Below, one piece after another: positions 29,948 to 41,876 of a DNA stretch of 64,000 nucleotides. The stretch's first letter is position 1. Each line of letters begins with the position of its first letter. This stretch comes from Escherichia coli (GTDB taxonomy: Bacteria; Pseudomonadota; Gammaproteobacteria; Enterobacterales; Enterobacteriaceae). The translations under genes and the position numbers were made by a program. The notes under the pieces were generated by a model. That model searched no databases. It was not told the DNA's origin and was given only the letters and a program-made list of their open reading frames with translations. The stretch lies in the NCBI RefSeq assembly GCF_002854065.1, contig NZ_CP024147.1; one strand, written 5' to 3'.

Positions 29948-30334
29948 ATGAAAAAGCTGCAAATTGCGGTAGGTATTATTCGCAACGAGAACAATGAAAT
30001 CTTTATAACGCGTCGCGCAGCAGATGCGCACATGGCGAATAAACTGGAGTTTCCCGGCGGTAAAGTTGAAATGGGTGAAACGCCGGAACAGGCGGTGGTG
30101 CGTGAACTTCAGGAAGAAGTCGGGATTACCCCACAACATTTTTCGCTATTTGAAAAACTGGAATATGAATTCCCGGACAGGCATATAACTCTGTGGTTCT
30201 GGCTGGTCGAAAGCTGGGAAGGGGAGCCGTGGGGTAAAGAAGGGCAACCCGGTAAGTGGATGTCGCTGGTCGGTCTTAATGCCGATGATTTTCCGCCAGC
30301 CAATGAACCGGTAATTGCGAAGCTTAAACGTCTG

Positions 30335-30337
<3 letters not shown>
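29948..30337 (+). CDS. mutT: 8-oxo-dGTP diphosphatase (Nudix)
   Basis: 129-aa ORF MKKLQIAVGIIRNENNEIFITRRAADAHMANKLEFPGGKVEMGETPEQAVVRELQEEVGI (Nudix box). Confidence 0.96.
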
Positions 30338-30665
<328 letters not shown>

Positions 30666-30668
30666 ATG

Positions 30669-30866
30669 TCACTGCTTTGGTTCTTCGCTCCAGTCATCGC
30701 TTTCGGAAAGATCGCCACTGCTGGGGATTCGTTTTTCTTCAGCAGCCCATTCTCCGAGGTCGATCAACTGACAACGTTTGGAGCAAAATGGCCGAAACGG
30801 GCTGATTTCACCCCACACCACCGTTTTCCCGCAGGTTGGGCAATTCACCGTAATAGTTTCTGACAT
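30669..30866 (-). CDS. yacG: DNA gyrase inhibitor YacG (zinc-finger protein)
   Basis: 65-aa [47 protein letters not shown]...; CxxC...CxxC zinc ribbon. Confidence 0.93.
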
Positions 30867-30875
30867 TTTTACTCC

Positions 30876-31619
30876 TTAGCAACAGGCCAGTTCGAAATCC
30901 AGACGTTCCGGTACCTGTCCGTTTTCAGTGTCCAGCGGCATAAAACGAATGGCAAAACGGCTCTTATGTCCGGAAATTTGCGGATAAAGCTGTGAATCGA
31001 GCGACAGATTCAGGCGCAGCAAGTCGGCATCGCCACCGTTATCCTGATAAAAACCATTCAGGCTGGTTTGTTTACGGAAGGGGGCCGACTGGCGAATTAA
31101 ATCCAGCACCATGGTTAGTGCCTGGGTAAGCGGGTTCAGGCTGGCAATCCAGGTTTCTACCTGGCTGTCGCGCTGCGCCTGGGGTAGATGCAGCCAAATG
31201 TGCAATGTTGGTAAATCAAAGCTGCAACAGCCGCCTGGGATGCTCAGTCGCTGACGCACCAGAGCAATCAAACGATCTTCACGTAGAAATTGCCCGATAC
31301 GCGGCGCGGAGATTAATACGCTACCCGCCGCTTTTAACTGCTGAATTAATGCTTCAATACGACTCTGGTCCACGCCGGGCACGCCAATCCAGGTCTGGAG
31401 TTTACGTTGCTGCCGGTCAAGTTCTTTCAACAGCTCAGTGCGGACTTCGCCGCGCTCGAAAACATCCAGTAATTCACTGACATTACGGAAGAAATGCAGC
31501 GCGCCAGCGTGGTCAACGATGGGTAAATTAACGGTGAGTTGCTGAATCAAAAACTCAATGCGCAGCCATGTACGCATTTTTTCATTTAGTGGATGTTCAA
31601 AAAGGACCTGGGTCTGCAT
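30876..31619 (-). CDS. zapD: cell division factor ZapD
   Basis: 247-aa [31 protein letters not shown]... Confidence 0.93.
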
Positions 31620-32239
31620 TACGGTTTTTCCTGTGAGACAAACTGCGACGCAAGCTGCAAATAGTGTGCGTGCAGGCGGGCAACATCCGATGCGATAGCA
31701 TCCGGTGCGCCGTTATTATCAATGACGTCATCTGCCACGGCAAGGCGGGCTTCGCGCGTTGCCTGAGCAGCAAGGATTTGTTCGACATGCTCGCGAGTTA
31801 CATCATCGCGCTGCATGGTGCGCTTAAGTTGCGTTTCTGGGCTGACATCCACCACCAGCACTCGATTCGCTTTTTTATACAGTGAGTTTTCTACCAGCAA
31901 TGGCACAACCCACAGTACATAGGGGGAAGTTGCTTGCTGGATCTGGTGTTGCGTCTCTTGCTGAATCAGCGGATGCAGCAGGGCGTTAAGCCAGTTTTTA
32001 TCTTCCGGGTTGGCGAAGATCCGCTCGCGCAAGGCCCGGCGCTGCAATGTTCCATCAGCAGCAATCATGTTAGCGCCAAAGTGATCAGCAATGGCATGTA
32101 GCGCAGGTGCACCTGGTTCAACCACCTGACGCGCAATAATATCGGCATCAATGACGTTAATTCCGAGATCAGCAAACGCATTGGCAACGGTACTCTTGCC
32201 ACTGCCAATGCCTCCCGTTAAGGCAACTATATACCTCAT
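31619..32239 (-). CDS. coaE: dephospho-CoA kinase
   Basis: 206-aa [36 protein letters not shown]... (P-loop GGIGSGKST); its stop shares 1 nt with the zapD start. Confidence 0.95.
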
Positions 32240-32463
32240 AATTTATATTCCCGGGAATTCATCATGATTATCAAAACGTTAAAAATGAGCGCACGAAAGC
32301 GAAATTGATGAAACGTTCGCTCACTATTTACCAGGTAAATTTATGGGATTGTAGCGTAAAAAAAGACAATTTCGCAGTCTTGCGCCGCATTGATTAGTGC
32401 GTATGATAGCGTCACTGGAGTTGCGCTCTTACCCTTATAGCCATTAACCCCAGGAATCCGCAC

Positions 32464-33507
32464 ATGCGTATTGAAGAAGATCTGAAGTTAGGTTTTAAAG
32501 ACGTTCTCATCCGCCCTAAACGCTCCACTCTTAAAAGCCGTTCCGATGTTGAACTGGAACGTCAATTCACCTTCAAACATTCAGGTCAGAGCTGGTCCGG
32601 CGTGCCGATTATCGCCGCAAATATGGACACCGTAGGCACATTTTCTATGGCCTCTGCGCTGGCTTCTTTTGATATTTTGACTGCTGTGCATAAACACTAT
32701 TCTGTCGAAGAGTGGCAAGCGTTTATCAACAATTCTTCCGCTGATGTGCTGAAACATGTGATGGTTTCTACCGGTACGTCAAATGCGGATTTCGAAAAAA
32801 CTAAACAGATTCTCGACCTGAACCCGGCATTAAATTTCGTTTGTATTGACGTGGCGAATGGTTATTCCGAACACTTCGTACAGTTCGTTGCGAAAGCGCG
32901 TGAAGCGTGGCCGACCAAAACCATTTGTGCTGGCAACGTAGTGACTGGTGAAATGTGTGAGGAGCTTATCCTCTCCGGTGCCGATATCGTTAAAGTTGGC
33001 ATTGGCCCAGGTTCTGTTTGTACAACTCGCGTCAAAACAGGCGTCGGTTATCCGCAACTTTCTGCGGTAATCGAATGTGCCGATGCTGCGCACGGTCTGG
33101 GCGGAATGATCGTCAGCGATGGTGGCTGCACCACGCCGGGCGATGTCGCGAAAGCCTTTGGCGGCGGTGCCGATTTCGTCATGCTTGGCGGCATGCTGGC
33201 GGGCCACGAAGAGAGCGGCGGTCGCATCGTTGAGGAGAACGGCGAGAAATTTATGCTGTTCTACGGCATGAGCTCCGAGTCTGCGATGAAACGTCACGTT
33301 GGCGGCGTTGCGGAATATCGCGCAGCAGAAGGTAAAACCGTTAAGCTGCCGCTGCGAGGCCCGGTTGAAAATACCGCGCGTGATATTTTGGGCGGCCTGC
33401 GTTCAGCTTGTACATACGTTGGGGCTTCACGCCTGAAAGAACTGACCAAGCGCACCACATTTATCCGTGTGCAGGAACAAGAAAACCGCATCTTCAACAA
33501 CCTGTAA
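32464..33507 (+). CDS. guaC: GMP reductase
   Basis: 347-aa [42 protein letters not shown]... (IMPDH/GMPR family). Confidence 0.96.
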
Positions 33508-33541
33508 TCTCCCAACGCTGGTGTGGAGCAACACGCCAGCG

Positions 33542-34744
33542 TTATCCCATCCCACTCATCGCATCGCCTAAATGGAAAATTGGCAGATACATCGCCACCA
33601 CCAGCGTACCGATAATTCCTCCCGTTATGATCAGCAACGCCGGTTCCAGTAAGGCTGCTAGGTTATCCGCCAGCGCCATTGTGTTATCCCGATGATGATG
33701 GGCGAGGTTGTCTAACATGAGATCCAGCGAGCCGGAGGCCTCTCCCGTTCTCACTAATTGCAAACAGAGCGGGCTAAACTCACCGGCATTTTTTAGCGCC
33801 AGCCAGATGGGATGACCGTTACTGATATCGTGCTGGATTTGTGTCAGAAGTTGCACCCAGTACGGGCAGCGCATTGTTTCTCTGACGCTCTCTACGCCCT
33901 GTAAAAAAGTAATGCCTGCACTTTGTGTCAGCGCCAGAATCGTAAAGATCTGCGTGAGTTTTTGTCCCCGCATCAGTGAGCCCATAATCGGGATGTGTAA
34001 CAGCAATTTCTGCCGCACGATAAGCCAGGTCGGTCGGCGCATCAGCAACTTATTGGCTATCGCCAGCAGAAAGCCGAACAACACCAGCAGCCAGCCCCAT
34101 TCGCCACTAAAGTCTGCCAGCGTCATGATCCCCTGCGTTAGTGCCGGTAGTGGGGTGTTGAAGGTCTTATAGATAGCGGCAAACTCCGGCAGAACAAAAT
34201 GCAGCATTGCCACAACCACCATGATTGCCATCGCTAAAATGATGATGGGATAACGCAACGCTGATTTCACTTTGTCGGTCAACTGACGCTGGGCTTTTTG
34301 CTGACGCGCCAGTTCAAAGCAGCATTCATCCAGCTTACCGGTCAGTTCACCCGTGCGGATCATCGCCTGATAGAGCGGCGGAAATACCTCTGACCAGGGT
34401 AATAAGGCATTGGAAAAAGCAATGCCCTGTTCGAGATCGTGCGCCAGCGATTGCAGCAACGCTTGCCATTGCTTACTGGGATGCTGTTCCGCCAGCAGAG
34501 CCAGCCCTTCAGAAAGAGTTAACCCGGCTTTAAGTAGCGTCGCCAGTTGATGAATGACTTCCGCGCTTTTATCTCCTCGCCACTGCGCAGAATTGATAGC
34601 AATTCGCTTCAGGCTTAGTGGAGTAACCATCTGTTGCTGTAGTGCCATGAGCAGCAAAGCACGGCTCTCTGCCCATCGCATCCCATCTTGCGCATTGCCG
34701 TCGCCGGTTATGCCATGCCAGCGCCAGAGTTGCTTACTCGCCAT
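33542..34744 (-). CDS. hofC: type IV pilus / T2SS-like inner-membrane platform protein (GspF/PilC family)
   Basis: 400-aa [24 protein letters not shown]... with hydrophobic TM segments. Confidence 0.92.
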   Translation of the reverse strand: MASKQLWRWHGITGDGNAQDGMRWAESRALLLMALQQQMVTPLSLKRIAINSAQWRGDKSAEVIHQLATLLKAGLTLSEGLALLAEQHPSKQWQALLQSLAHDLEQGIAFSNALLPWSEVFPPLYQAMIRTGELTGKLDECCFELARQQKAQRQLTDKVKSALRYPIIILAMAIMVVVAMLHFVLPEFAAIYKTFNTPLPALTQGIMTLADFSGEWGWLLVLFGFLLAIANKLLMRRPTWLIVRQKLLLHIPIMGSLMRGQKLTQIFTILALTQSAGITFLQGVESVRETMRCPYWVQLLTQIQHDISNGHPIWLALKNAGEFSPLCLQLVRTGEASGSLDLMLDNLAHHHRDNTMALADNLAALLEPALLIITGGIIGTLVVAMYLPIFHLGDAMSGMG

Positions 34745-36119
34745 GCGGCATCCCCAGTACGCAGATTAACTCTTCAAAGGTGGTTAAGCCTTGCTCCACG
34801 GCCAGGCAGCCGTTTTCAAAAAGCGTTCGCATACCCGCCTGTCGGGCGTGCGTTTCCAGCGATTCAACGTCGGTATTAGCGGAAATAAGCTGACGTATGA
34901 CCGGTGTTATGGGCAGAACTTCAAATAAGGCAGTGCGACCATAAAAACCGTGGTAGCAATGTACACAACCGGGTGCCTGCCAATGGGGCAGCGGCGACGG
35001 CCATACATTGTCTGGAATATGGATGGGCTCCCCTTGCTGGCGGCGACAATGTGGGCAAAGTTTACGTACCAGACGCTGGGCTATTACCAGCGTAAGCGCT
35101 GATGAGAGCATCCAGCGGGCGGCTCCCATTTGCTGTAAACGTACCAGCGTTTCAGTGGTGGAATTGGTGTGTAGGGTAGACAACACCAGGTGACCGGTTT
35201 GCGCGGCTTTAATGGCAATTTCTGCCGTTTCGCCATCGCGGATCTCTCCGATCATGATGACGTCAGGATCCTGGCGCAATAACGCACGCAAAACGCCCTG
35301 AAAGGTGAGTCCGGCACGCGGATGGATTTGCGTCTGGTTTAGTCCGGCTATGGGGATCTCAACCGGATCTTCGACGCTACAAATATTAATGTCAGCGGTA
35401 TTCAGCTTTTGCAGGGCACTATAAAGCGTGACCGTTTTGCCGCTGCCTGTAGGGCCAGTTACCAGCACCAGTCCCTGTGGTTGTTGCAAGGCATGAGCAA
35501 AGTCCGCCAGTTGTAATGGCTGCATTCCAAGCGCGTTGACATCCAGTGCCTGGCTCACCTGCTGTAACAACCTTAATACCACCTTTTCACCCCCCCGACA
35601 TGGTAAGGTCGCAATACGAAATGAGACGGCGTTTCCTGCCAGTTCGACAGTGAATTGCCCGTCCTGCGGCAGGCGATGTTCCGCAATATCCAGGTTTCCC
35701 AGTACTTTTAATCTGGCGGTTAATGCGACTCCGGCATCCGGTGAAACATCCGGTAAAGGATGCAATACGCCGTCGATACGCAAGCGGATGCGGTAGGCAT
35801 TGTCCGCTGGTTCGATATGAATATCAGACGCGCGTTGTTCCAGCGCAGATTGTAACGTTCGAGTCAGCAACTCTGCTTTGGGCTGATGCTTCTCCTGAAC
35901 AGCTACGGGCAATGTCTGTTGTGTGCGACTGGCGTGACCTTCCATTTGTTGGCGCGTCCAGCAGGTGATCTCAATACGTTTGGTGGTAGCGAAATGCAAT
36001 GCGTCCAGCAATTCATGTGAGGGGGCATCGACCACCGCAACATGAACCACTTCTTCGCTGGCATCCAGCAAGACTCCCTGATAACGCAAACACAGGGCGG
36101 TGAGCTGTGGAATATTCAT
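34734..36119 (-). CDS. hofB: type IV pilus assembly ATPase (GspE/PilB family)
   Basis: 461-aa ORF with Walker A GPTGSGKT and a C-terminal CPHC...CVHC metal-binding cluster; 11-nt overlap with hofC. Confidence 0.93.
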
Positions 36120-36128
36120 TGCCGTTCC

Positions 36129-36569
36129 TTAGTTGGCGTCATCAAAACGGAAGACATCTTCGCAGGCTTGCTGCAATGCGCTGTCATTTCGAATATTGCA
36201 GTTGCGCGTCCAGCCGGTGACGCCGTTTGCGTTATCCCAACCTGGCGTCATGACGACGCTTAGCCCATTGAGACTTTCTTGCCCGGTCAGCGACACCACG
36301 CCCTTTGCCACACTCATGGCTGAAACATAGCGGGTGGTGGTAGGCGAGGGAATGCCATTGCTGCCACCGTCGCAGGTATCTAATCCACCATGTTCCAGCG
36401 CGCACAACTCTACGGCGGTACGGTAAGGCACAAAGGTTTGTAGCATGTCGGTGAGTGCGGCTTTGCGCAGGTAGTTTTGATAAGCGGGAATACCAATGGC
36501 GCTTAAAATGGCAATGATGCCAATAACCACCATCAGTTCGATAAGTGTAAAACCGCGTTGCTTGTCCAT
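36129..36569 (-). CDS. ppdD: type IV prepilin (major pilin subunit)
   Basis: 146-aa ORF MDKQRGFTLIELMVVIGIIAILSAIGIP...: short basic leader, G|FTLIE prepilin peptidase site, hydrophobic alpha1 helix. Confidence 0.93.
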   Translation of the reverse strand: MDKQRGFTLIELMVVIGIIAILSAIGIPAYQNYLRKAALTDMLQTFVPYRTAVELCALEHGGLDTCDGGSNGIPSPTTTRYVSAMSVAKGVVSLTGQESLNGLSVVMTPGWDNANGVTGWTRNCNIRNDSALQQACEDVFRFDDAN

Positions 36570-36771
36570 CTGTTTCGCTCCTTGATTTGGTTGGTGCTAC
36601 TTTGGCAAACGCCATCAGCACAGGCGAGGGGCAAAAAACGAAACGGGAAAGCTGCTTCCGAGGTTTTTTATTTCGTTGCAGTGAAAGACAAGAAATTTGC
36701 GAGGCGTTACGAAGAAGGTTGGGGAAGGGGAGATTATCCGCCCAGTATGGAGCGGATAAATCTGTCAGCTA

Positions 36772-37725
<954 letters not shown>

Positions 37726-37752
37726 TTAGCACCACATATAAGGAGATCCTGC

Positions 37753-38304
37753 ATGTTGTTAGAACAGGGGTGGCTGGTTGGCGCGCGCCGCGTTCCCTCA
37801 CCACATTACGATTGCCGCCCGGATGACGAAACACCCACCCTGCTGGTGGTGCACAATATTAGCCTGCCGCCAGGCGAGTTTGGCGGTCCGTGGATCGACG
37901 CATTATTCACTGGAACTATTGATCCGCAGGCACATCCTTTCTTTGCTGAGATCGCCCATTTGCGCGTCTCCGCTCACTGTTTGATTCGCCGTGATGGTGA
38001 AATAGTCCAGTATGTTCCTTTCGATAAACGTGCCTGGCATGCGGGAGTCTCTCAGTATCAGGGGCGCGAACGCTGCAATGATTTTTCTATTGGGATTGAG
38101 CTTGAAGGCACCGATACGCTGGCGTATACCGATGCGCAGTATCAACAGCTTGCGGCGGTTACGCGGGCACTGATTGATCGCTATCCAGATATCGCTAATA
38201 ACATGACGGGCCATTGTGATATTGCGCCGGATCGGAAAACCGATCCCGGCCCTGCATTTGATTGGGCACGGTTTCGTGCGCTGGTCAGCAAGGAGACAAC
38301 ATGA
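37753..38304 (+). CDS. ampD: 1,6-anhydro-N-acetylmuramyl-L-alanine amidase
   Basis: 183-aa [48 protein letters not shown]... Confidence 0.95.
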
Positions 38305-39155
38305 CGCTATTTACAACCTTACTGGTGTTAATTTTCGAGCGCCTGTTTAAGTTGGGCGAGCACTGGCAGCTTGATCATCGTCTTGAAGCGTTCTTTCGGC
38401 GGGTGAAACATTTTTCTCTCGGGCGCACGTTAGGCATGACCATTATTGCGATGGGCGTGACTTTTTTACTGTTACGCGCATTGCAGGGAGTATTGTTCAA
38501 CGTTCCCACGCTGCTGGTGTGGCTGCTGATTGGTTTGCTGTGTATTGGCGCAGGTAAAGTTCGTCTTCATTATCATGCTTATCTGACAGCTGCTTCACGT
38601 AATGATAGCCATGCCCGTGCCACGATGGCTGGCGAACTCACCATGATTCACGGCGTCCCGGCAGGCTGCGACGAACGTGAGTATTTGCGTGAGCTGCAAA
38701 ATGCATTGCTGTGGATTAACTTTCGTTTTTATCTTGCACCGCTGTTCTGGCTGATTGTGGGGGGAACCTGGGGACCCGTTACGCTGATGGGGTATGCGTT
38801 CTTGCGTGCATGGCAATACTGGCTGGCGCGATACCAGACGCCGCATCATCGTTTACAGTCCGGCATTGATGCCGTGCTTCATGTACTGGATTGGGTGCCA
38901 GTTCGTCTTGCGGGTGTGGTATATGCCTTGATCGGTCATTGTGAGAAAGCGTTACCGGCCTGGTTTGCTTCGCTGGGTGATTTCCATACTTCGCAGTATC
39001 AGGTGTTAACGCGTCTGGCGCAGTTCTCTCTGGCGCGTGAACCGCATGTCGATAAGGTGGAGACGCCGAAGGCAGCGGTTTCAATGGCGAAGAAAACCTC
39101 GTTCGTGGTCGTGGTGGTGATTGCGCTACTGACGATTTACGGGGCGTTGGTGTAA
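38301..39155 (+). CDS. ampE: inner-membrane protein AmpE
   Basis: Track ORF 38262..39155 trimmed to the ATG at 38301 ([27 protein letters not shown]..., 284 aa); ATGA overlap with the ampD stop. Confidence 0.92.
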
Positions 39156-39163
39156 AGATTATT

Positions 39164-39188
39164 GCCCTCACCGTGTACAGGTGAGGGC
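39164..39188. terminator. hairpin between convergent ampE and aroP (candidate bidirectional terminator)
   Basis: gccctcacc gtgtaca ggtgagggc perfect 9-bp stem; flanking U-tracts are weak. Confidence 0.45.
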
Positions 39189-39197
39189 GTAGAGAGA

Positions 39198-40571
39198 TTA
39201 ATGCGCTTTTACGGCTTTGGCGGTTTTCTCTTTAAACAGATAGCCGATACCTAACACGATCAGCCATACCGGGATCAGGTATACCGAAATCGCCATTCCT
39301 GGGGTCATCAGCATAATCACCAGTACCGCCGCCATAAACAGCAGGCAGATCCAGTTACCCAGCGGATAAAGCAGAGCAGGGAAGCGAGTTACCACGCCTT
39401 GTTCCTGCTTGGCGCGACGGAATTTCATATGCGCCAGGCTAATCATCGCCCAGTTGATCACCAGTGCAGATACCACCAGCGCCATTAACAGGCCAAATGC
39501 GGATTCCGGAGCAAGATAGTTAATCAGTACGCACAATGCCGTTACCAGTGCAGACACCAGAATGGTGTTAACCGGTACGCCGCGTTTATCGACAGACGCC
39601 AGCGCTTTTGGCGCATTACCCTGTTGTGCCAGACCAAACAGCATACGGCTGTTGCAATATACGCAGCTGTTGTACACGGAGAGCGCCGCAGTCAGCACCA
39701 CGATGTTCAGCGCATTCGCCACAAAGGTATCGCCTAACTCGTGGAAGATCAGCACAAACGGACTGGTATCGGCGGTAACGCGGGTCCACGGCATCAGTGA
39801 GAGCAGAACGGCTAACGAACCAATATAGAAAATCAGGATGCGGTAGATAACCTGGTTAGTTGCTTTCGGGATACTTTGCTCCGGGTTATCAGCTTCTGCT
39901 GCGGTGATCCCCACCAGTTCCAGACCACCGAACGAGAACATGATAATCGCCATCATCATCACCAGCCCGGTGAAGCCGTGCGGCAGGAAACCACCTTGAT
40001 CCCACAGGTTGCTAACGGTCGCCTGCGGGCCGCCGTTGCCACTGAATAGCAGCCAGCCGCCGAAGATGATCATCGCTACTACCGCAATAACTTTGATAAT
40101 GGCAAACCAGAACTCCATCTCACCAAACACTTTTACGTTGGTCAGGTTGATGGCGTTAATCACCACAAAGAACACGGCGGCAGAAACCCAGGTTGGGATT
40201 TCCGGATACCAGAACTGAATGTATTTACCCACAGCAGTCAGCTCTGCCATGGCAACTAAAACGTACAGTACCCAGTAGTTCCAGCCAGAAGCGAAGCCAG
40301 CAAAGCTGCCCCAGTATTTATAAGCAAAGTGGCTAAAGGAGCCTGCGACAGGTTCTTCGACCACCATTTCACCCAGCTGACGCATGATCAGAAAGGCGAT
40401 AAAACCAGCAATGGCGTAACCCAGGATAATTCCTGGCCCTGCGGACTGTATTACGGAGGCGCTACCCAGGAATAGTCCTGTCCCTATCGCGCCACCCAGC
40501 GCGATAAGCTGAATATGGCGGTTTTTAAGGCCGCGCTTTAGCTGCTCGCCGTGCTGTTGACCTTCCATCAT
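39198..40571 (-). CDS. aroP: aromatic amino acid:H+ symporter (APC family)
   Basis: 457-aa ORF MMEGQQHGEQLKRGLKNRHIQLIALGGAIGTGLFLGSASVIQ... Confidence 0.96.
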   Translation of the reverse strand: MMEGQQHGEQLKRGLKNRHIQLIALGGAIGTGLFLGSASVIQSAGPGIILGYAIAGFIAFLIMRQLGEMVVEEPVAGSFSHFAYKYWGSFAGFASGWNYWVLYVLVAMAELTAVGKYIQFWYPEIPTWVSAAVFFVVINAINLTNVKVFGEMEFWFAIIKVIAVVAMIIFGGWLLFSGNGGPQATVSNLWDQGGFLPHGFTGLVMMMAIIMFSFGGLELVGITAAEADNPEQSIPKATNQVIYRILIFYIGSLAVLLSLMPWTRVTADTSPFVLIFHELGDTFVANALNIVVLTAALSVYNSCVYCNSRMLFGLAQQGNAPKALASVDKRGVPVNTILVSALVTALCVLINYLAPESAFGLLMALVVSALVINWAMISLAHMKFRRAKQEQGVVTRFPALLYPLGNWICLLFMAAVLVIMLMTPGMAISVYLIPVWLIVLGIGYLFKEKTAKAVKAH

Positions 40572-41111
40572 GAAACCTCGTGCGGTGATTGTTTTTTTGA
40601 TCTACGCAGTGATGCGTGTGTAAGTTTGCAATTCCGTTTGTTGTATTAATTTGTTTACATCAAAGAAGTTTGAATTGTTACAAAAAGACTTCCGTCAGAT
40701 CAAGAATAATGGTATGCGGCAGCGAATGCACCCGCTTTATGCATGGTTGAAGATGAGTTGCTTAAAAAGAAACCGTTTGTAAAGCTCAGCCTCAACCCCT
40801 CTCAATATGCAGAATGAATTTAAATTCGTTTTAATAGAATTAAAAATCACAAAATTGGTAAGTGAATCGGTTCAATTCGGATTTTTATAGTTTAATAATC
40901 GTTAAAAAATCCCTTTCCTACGTAAAGTCTACATTTGTGCATAGTTACAACTTTGAAACGTTATATATGTCAAGTTGTTAAAATGTGCACAGTTTCATGA
41001 TTTCAATCAAAACCTGTATGGACATAAGGTGAATACTTTGTTACTTTAGCGTCACAGACATGAAATTGGTAAGACCAATTGACTTCGGCAAGTGGCTTAA
41101 GACAGGAACTC

Positions 41112-41876
41112 ATGGCCTACAGCAAAATCCGCCAACCAAAACTCTCCGATGTGATTGAGCAGCAACTGGAGTTTTTGATCCTCGAAGGCACTCTCCGCCC
41201 GGGCGAAAAACTCCCACCGGAACGCGAACTGGCAAAACAGTTTGACGTCTCCCGTCCCTCATTGCGTGAGGCGATTCAACGTCTCGAAGCGAAGGGCTTG
41301 TTGCTTCGTCGCCAGGGTGGCGGCACTTTTGTCCAGAGCAGCCTATGGCAAAGCTTCAGCGATCCGCTGGTGGAGCTGCTCTCCGACCATCCTGAATCAC
41401 AGTATGACTTGCTCGAAACACGACACGCCCTGGAAGGTATCGCCGCTTATTACGCCGCGCTGCGTAGTACCGATGAAGACAAGGAACGCATCCGTGAACT
41501 CCACCACGCCATAGAACTGGCGCAGCAGTCTGGCGATCTGGACGCGGAATCAAACGCCGTACTCCAGTATCAGATTGCCGTCACCGAAGCGGCCCACAAT
41601 GTGGTTCTGCTTCATCTGCTAAGGTGTATGGAGCCGATGTTGGCCCAGAATGTCCGCCAGAACTTCGAATTGCTCTATTCGCGTCGCGAGATGCTGCCGC
41701 TGGTGAGTAGTCACCGCACCCGCATATTTGAAGCGATTATGGCCGGTAAGCCGGAAGAAGCGCGCGAAGCATCGCATCGCCATCTGGCCTTTATCGAAGA
41801 AATTTTGCTCGACAGAAGCCGTGAAGAAAGCCGCCGTGAGCGTTCTCTGCGTCGTCTGGAGCAACGAAAGAATTAG
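41112..41876 (+). CDS. pdhR: pyruvate dehydrogenase complex repressor (GntR/FadR family)
   Basis: Track ORF 41079..41876 trimmed to the ATG at 41112 ([48 protein letters not shown]..., 254 aa). Confidence 0.93.

Follow-up and report, generated by a model that had tools for sequence, protein, structure and literature searches.

Genes and features of the locus

The 64-kb stretch of DNA analysed here (the window) is E. coli chromosome extending from leuB to yadE. Between guaC and nadC it carries three intact minus-strand ORFs, ppdD, hofB and hofC, which together occupy positions 33542-36569, exactly where the preliminary description had placed a reverse-strand operon; the ORF listing contained no frameshift or premature stop codon in any of them. 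The gene names and family assignments proposed there agree with the profile matches described below and with the literature. The features of the locus are as follows.

32464-33507, plus strand: guaC, flanking gene
33513-33544, strand not assigned: inverted repeat, possible bidirectional terminator, filling the gap between the stop codons of hofC and guaC
33542-34744, minus strand: hofC, PilC/GspF-family inner-membrane platform protein, 400 aa (PRK10573)
34734-36119, minus strand: hofB, PilB/GspE-family assembly ATPase, 461 aa (PRK10436, Pfam T2SSE)
34956-35057, minus strand: HofB tetracysteine cluster, CPHC (residues 355-358) and CVHC (residues 385-388), by motif reading
35433-35456, minus strand: HofB Walker A motif GPTGSGKT (residues 222-229), by motif reading
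36129-36569, minus strand: ppdD, major type IVa prepilin, 146 aa (PRK10574, TIGR02532 and 6gv9 matches)
36537-36554, minus strand: GFTLIE codons, where prepilin peptidase would cleave (G|F) and N-methylate, Glu being at +5, by motif reading
36695-36716, minus strand: CRP-S-type site TTCTTCGTAACGCCTCGCAAAT, 22-mer, putative Sxy/CRP-cAMP activator site (pattern and published fragment)
36731-36763, minus strand: hairpin directly behind the nadC stop codon, likely nadC terminator
36772-37665, minus strand: nadC, flanking gene

Overlapping gene junctions had been reported for the operon. This holds for hofB and hofC, where the start of hofC lies within the end of hofB (11-nt overlap), but 9 nt lie between ppdD and hofB. 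At the other end of hofC, the stop codons of the convergent hofC and guaC genes are 34 nt apart. The inverted repeat in this gap has a folding energy of -17.8 kcal/mol (z = -1.88), 11 of 200 shuffled sequences folding equally well, and could conceivably serve as a bidirectional terminator. As had been noticed before, there are no secretin, prepilin peptidase, PilMNOP-type or minor-pilin genes in the window, judged from the leuB-yadE annotation of a near-identical genome. The only related item in the window is yacC, a pilotin-like gene approximately 19 kb away.

PpdD matches the E. coli-specific equivalog model PRK10574 of NCBIfam with 268.9 bits (cut-off 138), the prepilin N-terminal domain TIGR02532 and the PDB entries 6gv9/6gms, 'Prepilin peptidase-dependent protein D' (E = 2.6e-90). 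It starts with a class III signal peptide, MDKQRG|FTLIE, in which the previously recognized processing site G|FTLIE comprises residues 6-11. The short leader MDKQRG| is basic, and the mature N-terminus, FTLIELMVVIGIIAIL, has Glu at +5 and continues as a hydrophobic helix. The protein has four cysteines (residues 56, 66, 124 and 136).

HofB scores 817.2 bits with the E. coli-specific equivalog PRK10436 (cut-off 617). Its Pfam T2SSE domain extends from residue 75 to 451 (E = 6.6e-146) and is preceded by a weak MshEN-like match (residues 8-69, E = 2.9e-5). Both motifs mentioned in the preliminary description, GPTGSGKT and the C-terminal Cys cluster, are present, together with a Walker B/Asp box (VIMIGEIRD, residues 287-295) and a His box (HLVLSTLH, residues 310-317). 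The tetracysteine cluster is of the kind typical of GspE/PilB ATPases and is a putative zinc-binding motif. HofC, described earlier as a GspF-family platform protein, matches PRK10573, again an E. coli-specific equivalog, over its full length (661.2 bits, cut-off 401); it has three hydrophobic regions (residues ~159-192, 212-236 and 361-395), and its homologues contain the T2SSF domain (PF00482).

HofB is annotated by PGAP as 'type II secretion system protein GspE' ('gspE'). This label, along with matches to the GspE (TIGR02533, 453.1 bits) and GspF (TIGR02120, 260.5 bits) models, raises the question whether the module is part of a type II secretion system, in which it would form a pseudopilus for protein export. 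The E. coli gspC-O system does have a homologous GspE ATPase, a homologous GspF platform, pseudopilins with the G|F-xxx-E pattern and an A24 peptidase, GspO, which is able to process PpdD, and, in the literature, a heterologous type II secretion system is described as capable of assembling PpdD. However, both scores are below the curated cut-offs (630.25 for GspE, 424 for GspF), and HofB scores higher with the PilB model (482.7 bits). The nearest solved structures of HofB are PilB ATPases (5zfr, 6olj and 5tsg), the PpdD structure 6gv9 is that of a type IV pilus, and the locus is syntenic with loci of the pilin-ATPase-platform-peptidase-coaE type (see below). The true gspC-O operon is a separate and complete 12-gene locus in K-12, located at rpsJ-bfr, and no gsp genes are annotated in the window. 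We therefore rejected membership in a type II secretion system as very improbable, and consider the current 'GspE' label on HofB misleading.

Upstream region and published regulation

A consensus scan of positions 33400-36900 did not find a sigma-70 consensus promoter, which fits an activator-dependent ppdD promoter. The hairpin behind nadC folds with -16.7 kcal/mol (z = -3.45), and none of 200 shuffled sequences folded equally well. In eight strains its stem is conserved while the loop varies. It is likely to be the nadC terminator, and in this role would separate nadC from the ppdD promoter.

As a CRP-S site we regarded a 22-bp CRP site located upstream of the first gene whose core half-sites have C at position 6 and never T. 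The sequence upstream of ppdD contains a candidate of this kind, TTCTTCGTAACGCCTCGCAAAT, approximately 136 nt from the ATG, whose cores, TTCGT and TCGCA, have C at position 6 in both half-sites. The 22-mer occurs once in the window and is invariant in eight E. coli strains. When two mismatches were allowed, the core pattern turned up 33 times in the window against 45 expected by chance, thus sequence matching by itself proves nothing for this site. The candidate falls inside the ppdD fragment, located by its primers, that was band-shifted by CRP (PMC1635313). We infer from the pattern and this overlap that the 22-mer at 36695-36716 is the Sxy/CRP-cAMP activator site of ppdD.

The regulation of the operon has been described in K-12, where ppdD transcription depends on Sxy and CRP-cAMP (PMC1635313, PMC3330819): Sxy induces ppdD ~90-fold, and both CRP and cAMP are required (PMC1635313). 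CRP-S/Sxy regulation is common to type IVa pilus/competence operons of other gamma-proteobacteria (PMC1635313). Processed PpdD pilin is produced, DNA uptake is hofQ-dependent, PpdD was absent from cultures of 72 ECOR strains, and no natural condition that induces sxy is known (PMC3330819). PpdD pili have been reported in EHEC as HCP (PMC2920817), a reconstituted PpdD pilus system has been published, and the structure of the pilus was solved (PDB 6gv9). The module had been characterized as cryptic or involved in DNA uptake. Silence in laboratory culture and DNA uptake are both on record, but in view of Sxy induction, the processed pilin, the EHEC pili and the structure the term 'cryptic' is dated.

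The operon is the counterpart of K-12 ppdD-hofB-hofC (b0108-b0106), named hcpA-hcpB-hcpC (haemorrhagic coli pilus) in EHEC O157:H7: the genes, their order and lengths, the flanks and the CRP-S-type site are the same, and between the window and K-12 there are only allelic differences. The finding is thus correct but ordinary, an already known and well-studied operon; few 'silent' operons of E. coli are documented as well as this one, whose regulation, reconstitution and pilus structure have been published. We are highly confident that ppdD-hofB-hofC (hcpABC in EHEC) is a core-genome operon for a chromosomal type IVa pilus and encodes its major pilin, assembly ATPase and inner-membrane platform. 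Gene identity, intactness, selection, the conserved upstream site, the partner genes of a proxy genome and synteny come from the present analysis, whereas regulation, processing, assembly and DNA uptake come from the literature; the strain from which the window derives presumably behaves like the strains studied there.

Conservation in E. coli and partner genes at other loci

The ppdD-hofB-hofC locus is present in 5,424 of 5,426 complete E. coli genomes. In all seven sampled strains and in the window (eight alleles) the three genes are annotated as intact and have the same lengths. The locus DNA is 97.4% identical to that of K-12, and the identities of the proteins are 98.6% (PpdD), 98.7% (HofB) and 98.3% (HofC). 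PpdD differs from the K-12 protein by two substitutions, Q128R and S129N (precursor numbering), HofB and HofC by seven non-synonymous differences each. The dN/dS values (ppdD 0.118, hofB 0.094, hofC 0.13) clearly indicate purifying selection on all three genes, at a level similar to that of the neighbouring ampD (0.109).

Could the operon nevertheless be a functionless remnant, on its way to pseudogenes and kept by chance? Its genes are silent in standard culture, with PpdD detected in no ECOR strain, and their dN/dS values are three to four times those of guaC (0.03) and nadC (0.034); dS is elevated in hofB and hofC. HofC diverges rapidly between genera (~69% identity to the Salmonella protein), some E. 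coli records contain HofB-HofC fusions or truncated HofC, and the annotation of a close relative marks two related genes, ygdB and yggR, as frameshifted (see below). Decay is opposed by the ampD-like dN/dS values, by the near-universal occurrence of the locus with eight intact alleles out of eight, by the invariant CRP-S-type site and by a gene order that other families keep even where HofC identity has fallen to 35-46%. Moreover, the literature reports induction and processing as well as pili and DNA uptake. On the strength of purifying selection and the near-universal intact locus we rejected pseudogene decay, to which we give only a slight chance, in favour of a maintained pilus operon.

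The preliminary description held that the module depends on partners encoded in trans, and proposed a search for them. As a proxy for the genome of the window we used strain CUWW06, which has eight mismatches over 36 kb and an IS1 element that is missing from the window. Its gene order does not follow that of K-12 throughout. The search located the partner operons at other loci. CUWW06 has intact hofMNOPQ, encoding the secretin and the PilMNOP-type alignment complex, and the minor-pilin operon ppdA-ppdB-ygdB-ppdC; in complete E. coli genomes hofMNOPQ, the minor-pilin operon and sxy are each present in 5,425 of 5,426. In CUWW06 ygdB is annotated as frameshifted, its ORF reading as a 238-aa YgdB-PpdC fusion, which is either a real lesion or a sequencing error; the minor-pilin region of CUWW06 and of strain 100416 is 1 nt longer than in their nearest relatives. 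The PilT-like gene yggR is present and likewise annotated as frameshifted, with the same two explanations. A PilT-type retraction ATPase is dispensable for pilus assembly.

The prepilin peptidase of CUWW06 is a 155-aa A24 protein encoded next to bfr (Pfam Peptidase_A24, E = 3.1e-22). At rpsJ-bfr, where K-12 has the gspC-O operon, CUWW06 carries only this peptidase gene; the gspC-O cluster and the pppA region of K-12 are absent. Inspection by eye identified both Asp motifs (WDAKHGLLPD and GLGYGDVKF). The protein lacks the N-terminal DiS_P_DiS domain and is 41% identical to K-12 GspO. O157:H7 matches a 601-bp query containing the gene at 100% identity. Within the three regions examined, the 155-aa protein is the sole peptidase candidate in the lineage of the window and in ~40% of E. 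coli, O157:H7 among them. The frameshifts annotated in ygdB and yggR and the missing pppA and gspC-O could mean that pilus function is impaired in the CUWW06 lineage, or that the sequence contains errors.

Taken with the literature, these genes suggest how the pilus would be made. According to work in K-12, ppdD transcription is normally off and would be switched on by CRP-cAMP acting at the weak CRP-S site with the co-activator Sxy/TfoX. The precursor of PpdD would enter the inner membrane, where an A24 prepilin peptidase from another locus would cleave it behind Gly6. This enzyme is GspO or PppA in K-12, and probably the 155-aa protein encoded next to bfr in the close relative of the window and in O157:H7. 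[quoted passage not shown] One further locus encodes the HofMNOPQ proteins, and another the minor pilins. The pilus probably serves DNA uptake, which published work found to depend on Sxy and hofQ, and in EHEC also adhesion.

Gene order in relatives and proposed origin of the locus

The module had been described as wedged between guaC and nadC. The flanks were confirmed, but the implied insertion was not: the ancestral context is conserved in relatives, which retain the order ampD-nadC-pilin-ATPase-platform-...-coaE-zapD-yacG. The arrangement seen in E. coli is also found in Buttiauxella, Pectobacterium and Hafnia, and the same gene order extends to the other families already mentioned. The first homologue search yielded only Enterobacteriaceae, with at least 59% identity; the distant loci were taken from a library clustered at 50%. 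Metagenomic relatives have ampD/nadC upstream and coaE-zapD-yacG downstream, as at the E. coli locus. Two more distant relatives, L025 and L022, both singleton clusters, have a Peptidase_A24 gene between platform gene and coaE, in the place taken by guaC in E. coli. Only the similarity of its peptidase puts L025 near Budviciaceae. In a third relative, L030, the platform gene directly adjoins coaE.

If the module were an islet gained by horizontal transfer into the guaC-nadC interval, this would account for its position among housekeeping genes without its partner genes. The allele of the window is uncommon (at least 99% identity in 3 of 5,426 genomes, 95-99% in most), which could be read in the same sense. 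Against acquisition, the GC content across the locus (0.51-0.55) is similar to that of the flanks (~0.45-0.57) and does not shift where the operon begins or ends, neither mobility genes nor flanking repeats are annotated, the locus is near-universal in E. coli, and its ampD/nadC and coaE-zapD-yacG neighbours recur in other enterobacterial families. Lack of a GC step, near-universality and conserved neighbours led us to reject the islet, the least probable of all the explanations considered.

Other gamma-proteobacteria have pilA-pilB-pilC-pilD operons, in which the genes for the pilin, the ATPase (PilB-type) and the platform (PilC-type) follow one another as in E. coli. Such type IVa pilus/competence operons are exemplified by those of Haemophilus and Pseudomonas. 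The E. coli operon differs in having no pilD, the position of which is occupied by guaC. From the gene orders compared, the E. coli locus looks like an old pilABCD-coaE locus minus pilD with the convergent guaC at that position, and the module would appear isolated because it descended from a pilA-pilB-pilC-pilD-coaE arrangement whose enterobacterial form lost pilD. This would explain its orphaned look. With convergent guaC at the pilD position, the peptidase must come from another locus.

More tentatively, and with rather less than even confidence, we suggest that an ancestral pilA-pilB-pilC-pilD-coaE-zapD-yacG locus lost pilD within the Enterobacterales and later gained the convergent guaC, the pilus since then relying on a peptidase from a type II secretion locus. 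The 155-aa A24 protein lacks the N-terminal methyltransferase-associated domain, therefore in strains where it is the sole candidate PpdD may, on this reading, be cleaved but not N-methylated. A second difference from the pilA-pilB-pilC-pilD operons is in the ATPase: residues 64-451 of HofB align with positions 164-558 of the PilB model, and its N-terminus is approximately 100 residues shorter than the model.

The operon and its alleles

The preliminary description placed a three-gene type IV pilus operon on the minus strand, and the ORF list drawn over window positions 30000-40000 returned intact genes at exactly the same positions:

32464-33507, plus strand, guaC, convergent with hofC
33542-34744, minus strand, hofC, platform protein, 400 aa, intact ORF
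34734-36119, minus strand, hofB, ATPase, 461 aa, intact ORF
36129-36569, minus strand, ppdD, major prepilin, 146 aa, intact ORF
36695-36716, CRP-S-type 22-mer TTCTTCGTAACGCCTCGCAAAT, invariant in 8 strains
36772-37665, minus strand, nadC, upstream of ppdD

The mechanical ORF of nadC (36772-37707, minus strand, 311 aa) starts 14 codons upstream of the annotated 297-aa start at 37665; the extension was rejected as an ORF-calling artefact.

NCBIfam E. coli-specific equivalog models with curated cut-offs matched all three products over their full length: PpdD to PRK10574 (268.9 bits, cut-off 138), HofB to PRK10436 (817.2 bits, cut-off 617) and HofC to PRK10573 (661.2 bits, cut-off 401). In HofB, Pfam places the T2SSE core at residues 75-451 (E 6.6e-146) and a weak MshEN-like domain at the N-terminus. 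Every motif described earlier was found: the N-terminus of PpdD reads MDKQRG|FTLIE, and HofB has the Walker A sequence GPTGSGKT (residues 222-229) and a Cys cluster formed by the pairs CPHC and CVHC, besides VIMIGEIRD in the Walker B/Asp-box region and the His box HLVLSTLH. Of the junctions described as overlapping, hofB/hofC does overlap, by 11 nt; ppdD and hofB are 9 nt apart, with an AGGA ribosome-binding site inside the gap. ppdD, hofB and hofC were checked for frameshifts and premature stops, as proposed; the window and seven E. coli strains spanning the identity range had neither.

dN/dS, calculated by the Nei-Gojobori method over 8 alleles, was 0.118 for ppdD, 0.094 for hofB and 0.13 for hofC; the values for guaC, nadC and ampD were 0.03, 0.034 and 0.109, respectively. 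The pilus genes are clearly under purifying selection, which is looser than in core metabolic genes and far from neutral. dS of hofB and hofC (0.08-0.09) is about twice that of guaC, nadC and ampD (0.04-0.05), a difference that would be compatible with very low expression or with increased recombination. HofC diverges fast between genera (about 69% identity in Salmonella, about 60% in Enterobacter). Apart from the one junction detail, the feature is confirmed as the canonical, intact and selectively maintained E. coli ppdD-hofB-hofC operon.

The 3.6-kb locus was matched in 5,424 of 5,426 complete E. coli genomes, with 97.4% identity to K-12 and 100% to the wastewater strain CUWW06. The window allele of 33300-36900 is rare: three of the 5,426 genomes match at >=99%, the rest at 95-99%. 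CUWW06 differs from the window by 8 mismatches over 36-43 kb and by one IS1 copy, and is therefore a very close relative (sister strain) with a different genome; it served as whole-genome proxy for the window's strain. Its IS1 copy (CUWW06 region L001, 36010-36779) is inserted in the DUF3300 gene yacH, at about 49300 of the window, which lacks it. Some E. coli records contain HofB-HofC fusion proteins (596-674 aa, MshEN + T2SSE + T2SSF domains) or truncated HofC (264-307 aa), so in a minority of strains the operon is either broken or re-fused (protein records P0005, P0107, P0112, P0096 and P0116; overlap involved, 34734-34744).

Regulation and flanking hairpins

The ppdD-nadC spacer is 98% conserved (8 strains), and a consensus scan found no sigma-70 consensus promoter in it. 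TTCTTCGTAACGCCTCGCAAAT lies within the ppdD fragment that bound CRP in the band-shift assay of Cameron and Redfield, who found that Sxy induces ppdD 90-fold and that CRP and cAMP are both indispensable for this (PMC1635313). The CRP-S core pattern alone is no rarer than chance in the window, so the candidate assignment is based on where the 22-mer lies, on its conservation and on the published experiment. A strong hairpin lies directly 3′ of nadC (-16.7 kcal/mol, z = -3.45). An inverted repeat (-17.8 kcal/mol, z = -1.88) spans the 34-nt gap between the stop codons of hofC and guaC; as a bidirectional terminator it is a weak candidate.

PpdD is not expressed in ordinary culture and is processed after Sxy induction; DNA uptake depends on Sxy and hofQ (PMC3330819). 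EHEC makes PpdD/HcpA pili on Minca medium (PMC2920817), and EHEC ppdD-hofBC expressed in K-12 yields surface pilin (PMC2649431). The expression test under competence regulators proposed in the preliminary description has therefore already been done for K-12, with Sxy-induced ppdD (PMC1635313, PMC3330819). Structures of the PpdD pilus (PDB 6gv9) and the pilin domain (6gms) are available. The sequence, regulation, structure and partners of the operon are already known, and our additions are modest: a synteny series explaining the missing peptidase, and the lineage's seeming reliance on a minimal one.

Synteny and the absent peptidase gene

HofC relatives were taken from a 50%-clustered library and their gene neighbourhoods were read (percentages are HofC identity). 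The E. coli-type order was seen in Buttiauxella (46%), Pectobacterium (42%), an Enterobacteriaceae bacterium (39%) and a further relative (35%), for the parts of the locus covered by the contigs. Hafnia alvei (37% cluster) has the full order ampE-ampD-nadC-pilin-ATPase-platform-guaC (convergent)-coaE-zapD-yacG-mutT-secA. Contig L025 (36%) has ampD, then pilin-ATPase-platform-Peptidase_A24-coaE-zapD-yacG, its peptidase being closest to prepilin peptidases of Budviciaceae, followed by those of Orbaceae; L022 (32%) reads ATPase-platform-Peptidase_A24-coaE. In L030 (34%) coaE directly adjoins the platform gene. L029 (37%) is rearranged: after the platform gene come xseA, in the opposite orientation, and then a gene of the IMPDH family that includes a CBS domain; coaE is absent from the contig.

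On gene order, the simplest reading is that the E. coli locus is an old pilABCD-coaE locus, whose peptidase gene would have been lost within Enterobacterales and its place taken by guaC. The gene orders of Pseudomonas (nadC-pilA-pilBCD-coaE-yacG) and Haemophilus (ampD-pilABCD) would agree with it. Horizontal insertion of the operon is unlikely, since there is no GC step at its borders in the window and no mobility gene flanks it in the annotation.

Partner genes elsewhere on the chromosome

In agreement with the preliminary description, no gene for a secretin, a prepilin peptidase, a PilMNOP-type protein or a minor pilin is annotated in CUWW06 over the window span (leuB to yadE). The partner genes, which it proposed to look for elsewhere in the genome, are present in CUWW06: hofMNOPQ (intact), ppdA-ppdB-ygdB-ppdC and an A24 peptidase, besides dprA and gntX. 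hofMNOPQ, the ppdA operon and sxy each occur in 5,425 of 5,426 E. coli genomes. The interpretation of an isolated module dependent on partners, cryptic or serving DNA uptake, is supported.

The peptidase is an orphan 155-aa ORF between rpsJ and bfr, adjoining bfr (L007, 22801-23268), with a Peptidase_A24 domain (E 3.1e-22) and both catalytic Asp motifs, lacking the N-terminal DiS_P_DiS domain. Its identity to K-12 GspO is only 41%, so this is a separate gene, not a truncated GspO. In K-12 the rpsJ-bfr site holds gspAB and gspC-O, whereas CUWW06 has the short peptidase there instead and lacks the full gspC-O operon. Of 5,426 E. coli genomes, 2,255 have the short peptidase at this site; in O157:H7 a 601-bp query containing its gene was 100% identical. 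The pheV-glc region, where pppA presumably lies in K-12, contains a T6SS remnant and IS1 copies in CUWW06. The lineage seems to rely on the minimal 155-aa enzyme.

Both ygdB and the PilT-like yggR (L006, 12353-13332) are annotated as frameshifted in CUWW06. Near the 3′ end, ygdB differs in length by 1 nt from its counterparts in the nearest relatives, a lesion that fuses it in frame to ppdC (238 aa; L005, 30311-31027). The ygdB and yggR lesions may be genuine and specific to the lineage, or may be faults of the assembly. Outside the window span, the yhgN-gntU interval of CUWW06 (L002, 3800-7109) holds another DprA-like gene together with a RecQ-family helicase that is frameshifted, and resembles a small accessory islet.

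Secretin-related genes in the window are limited to yacC (55472-55819, minus strand), which lies about 19 kb from ppdD and carries the CUWW06 annotation 'YacC family pilotin-like protein' (PulS/OutS-like); yacC is not known to be linked to HofQ. The mutT-yacG intergenic region is filled by a tandem array (30333-30652; 116-bp unit, 2.8 copies, 93% identity) with palindromic GCCTGATGCGACGC / GCGTCTTATCAGGCC-type sequences in the unit; the array looks like a REP/BIME cluster. The aroP-pdhR intergenic region (40500-41250) has a lowered GC content of 0.37-0.38, vs about 0.52 around it. Internal direct repeats of about 79% identity occur in yacH (48420-48763) and in aceF (44730-45595), the latter probably representing repeated lipoyl domains.
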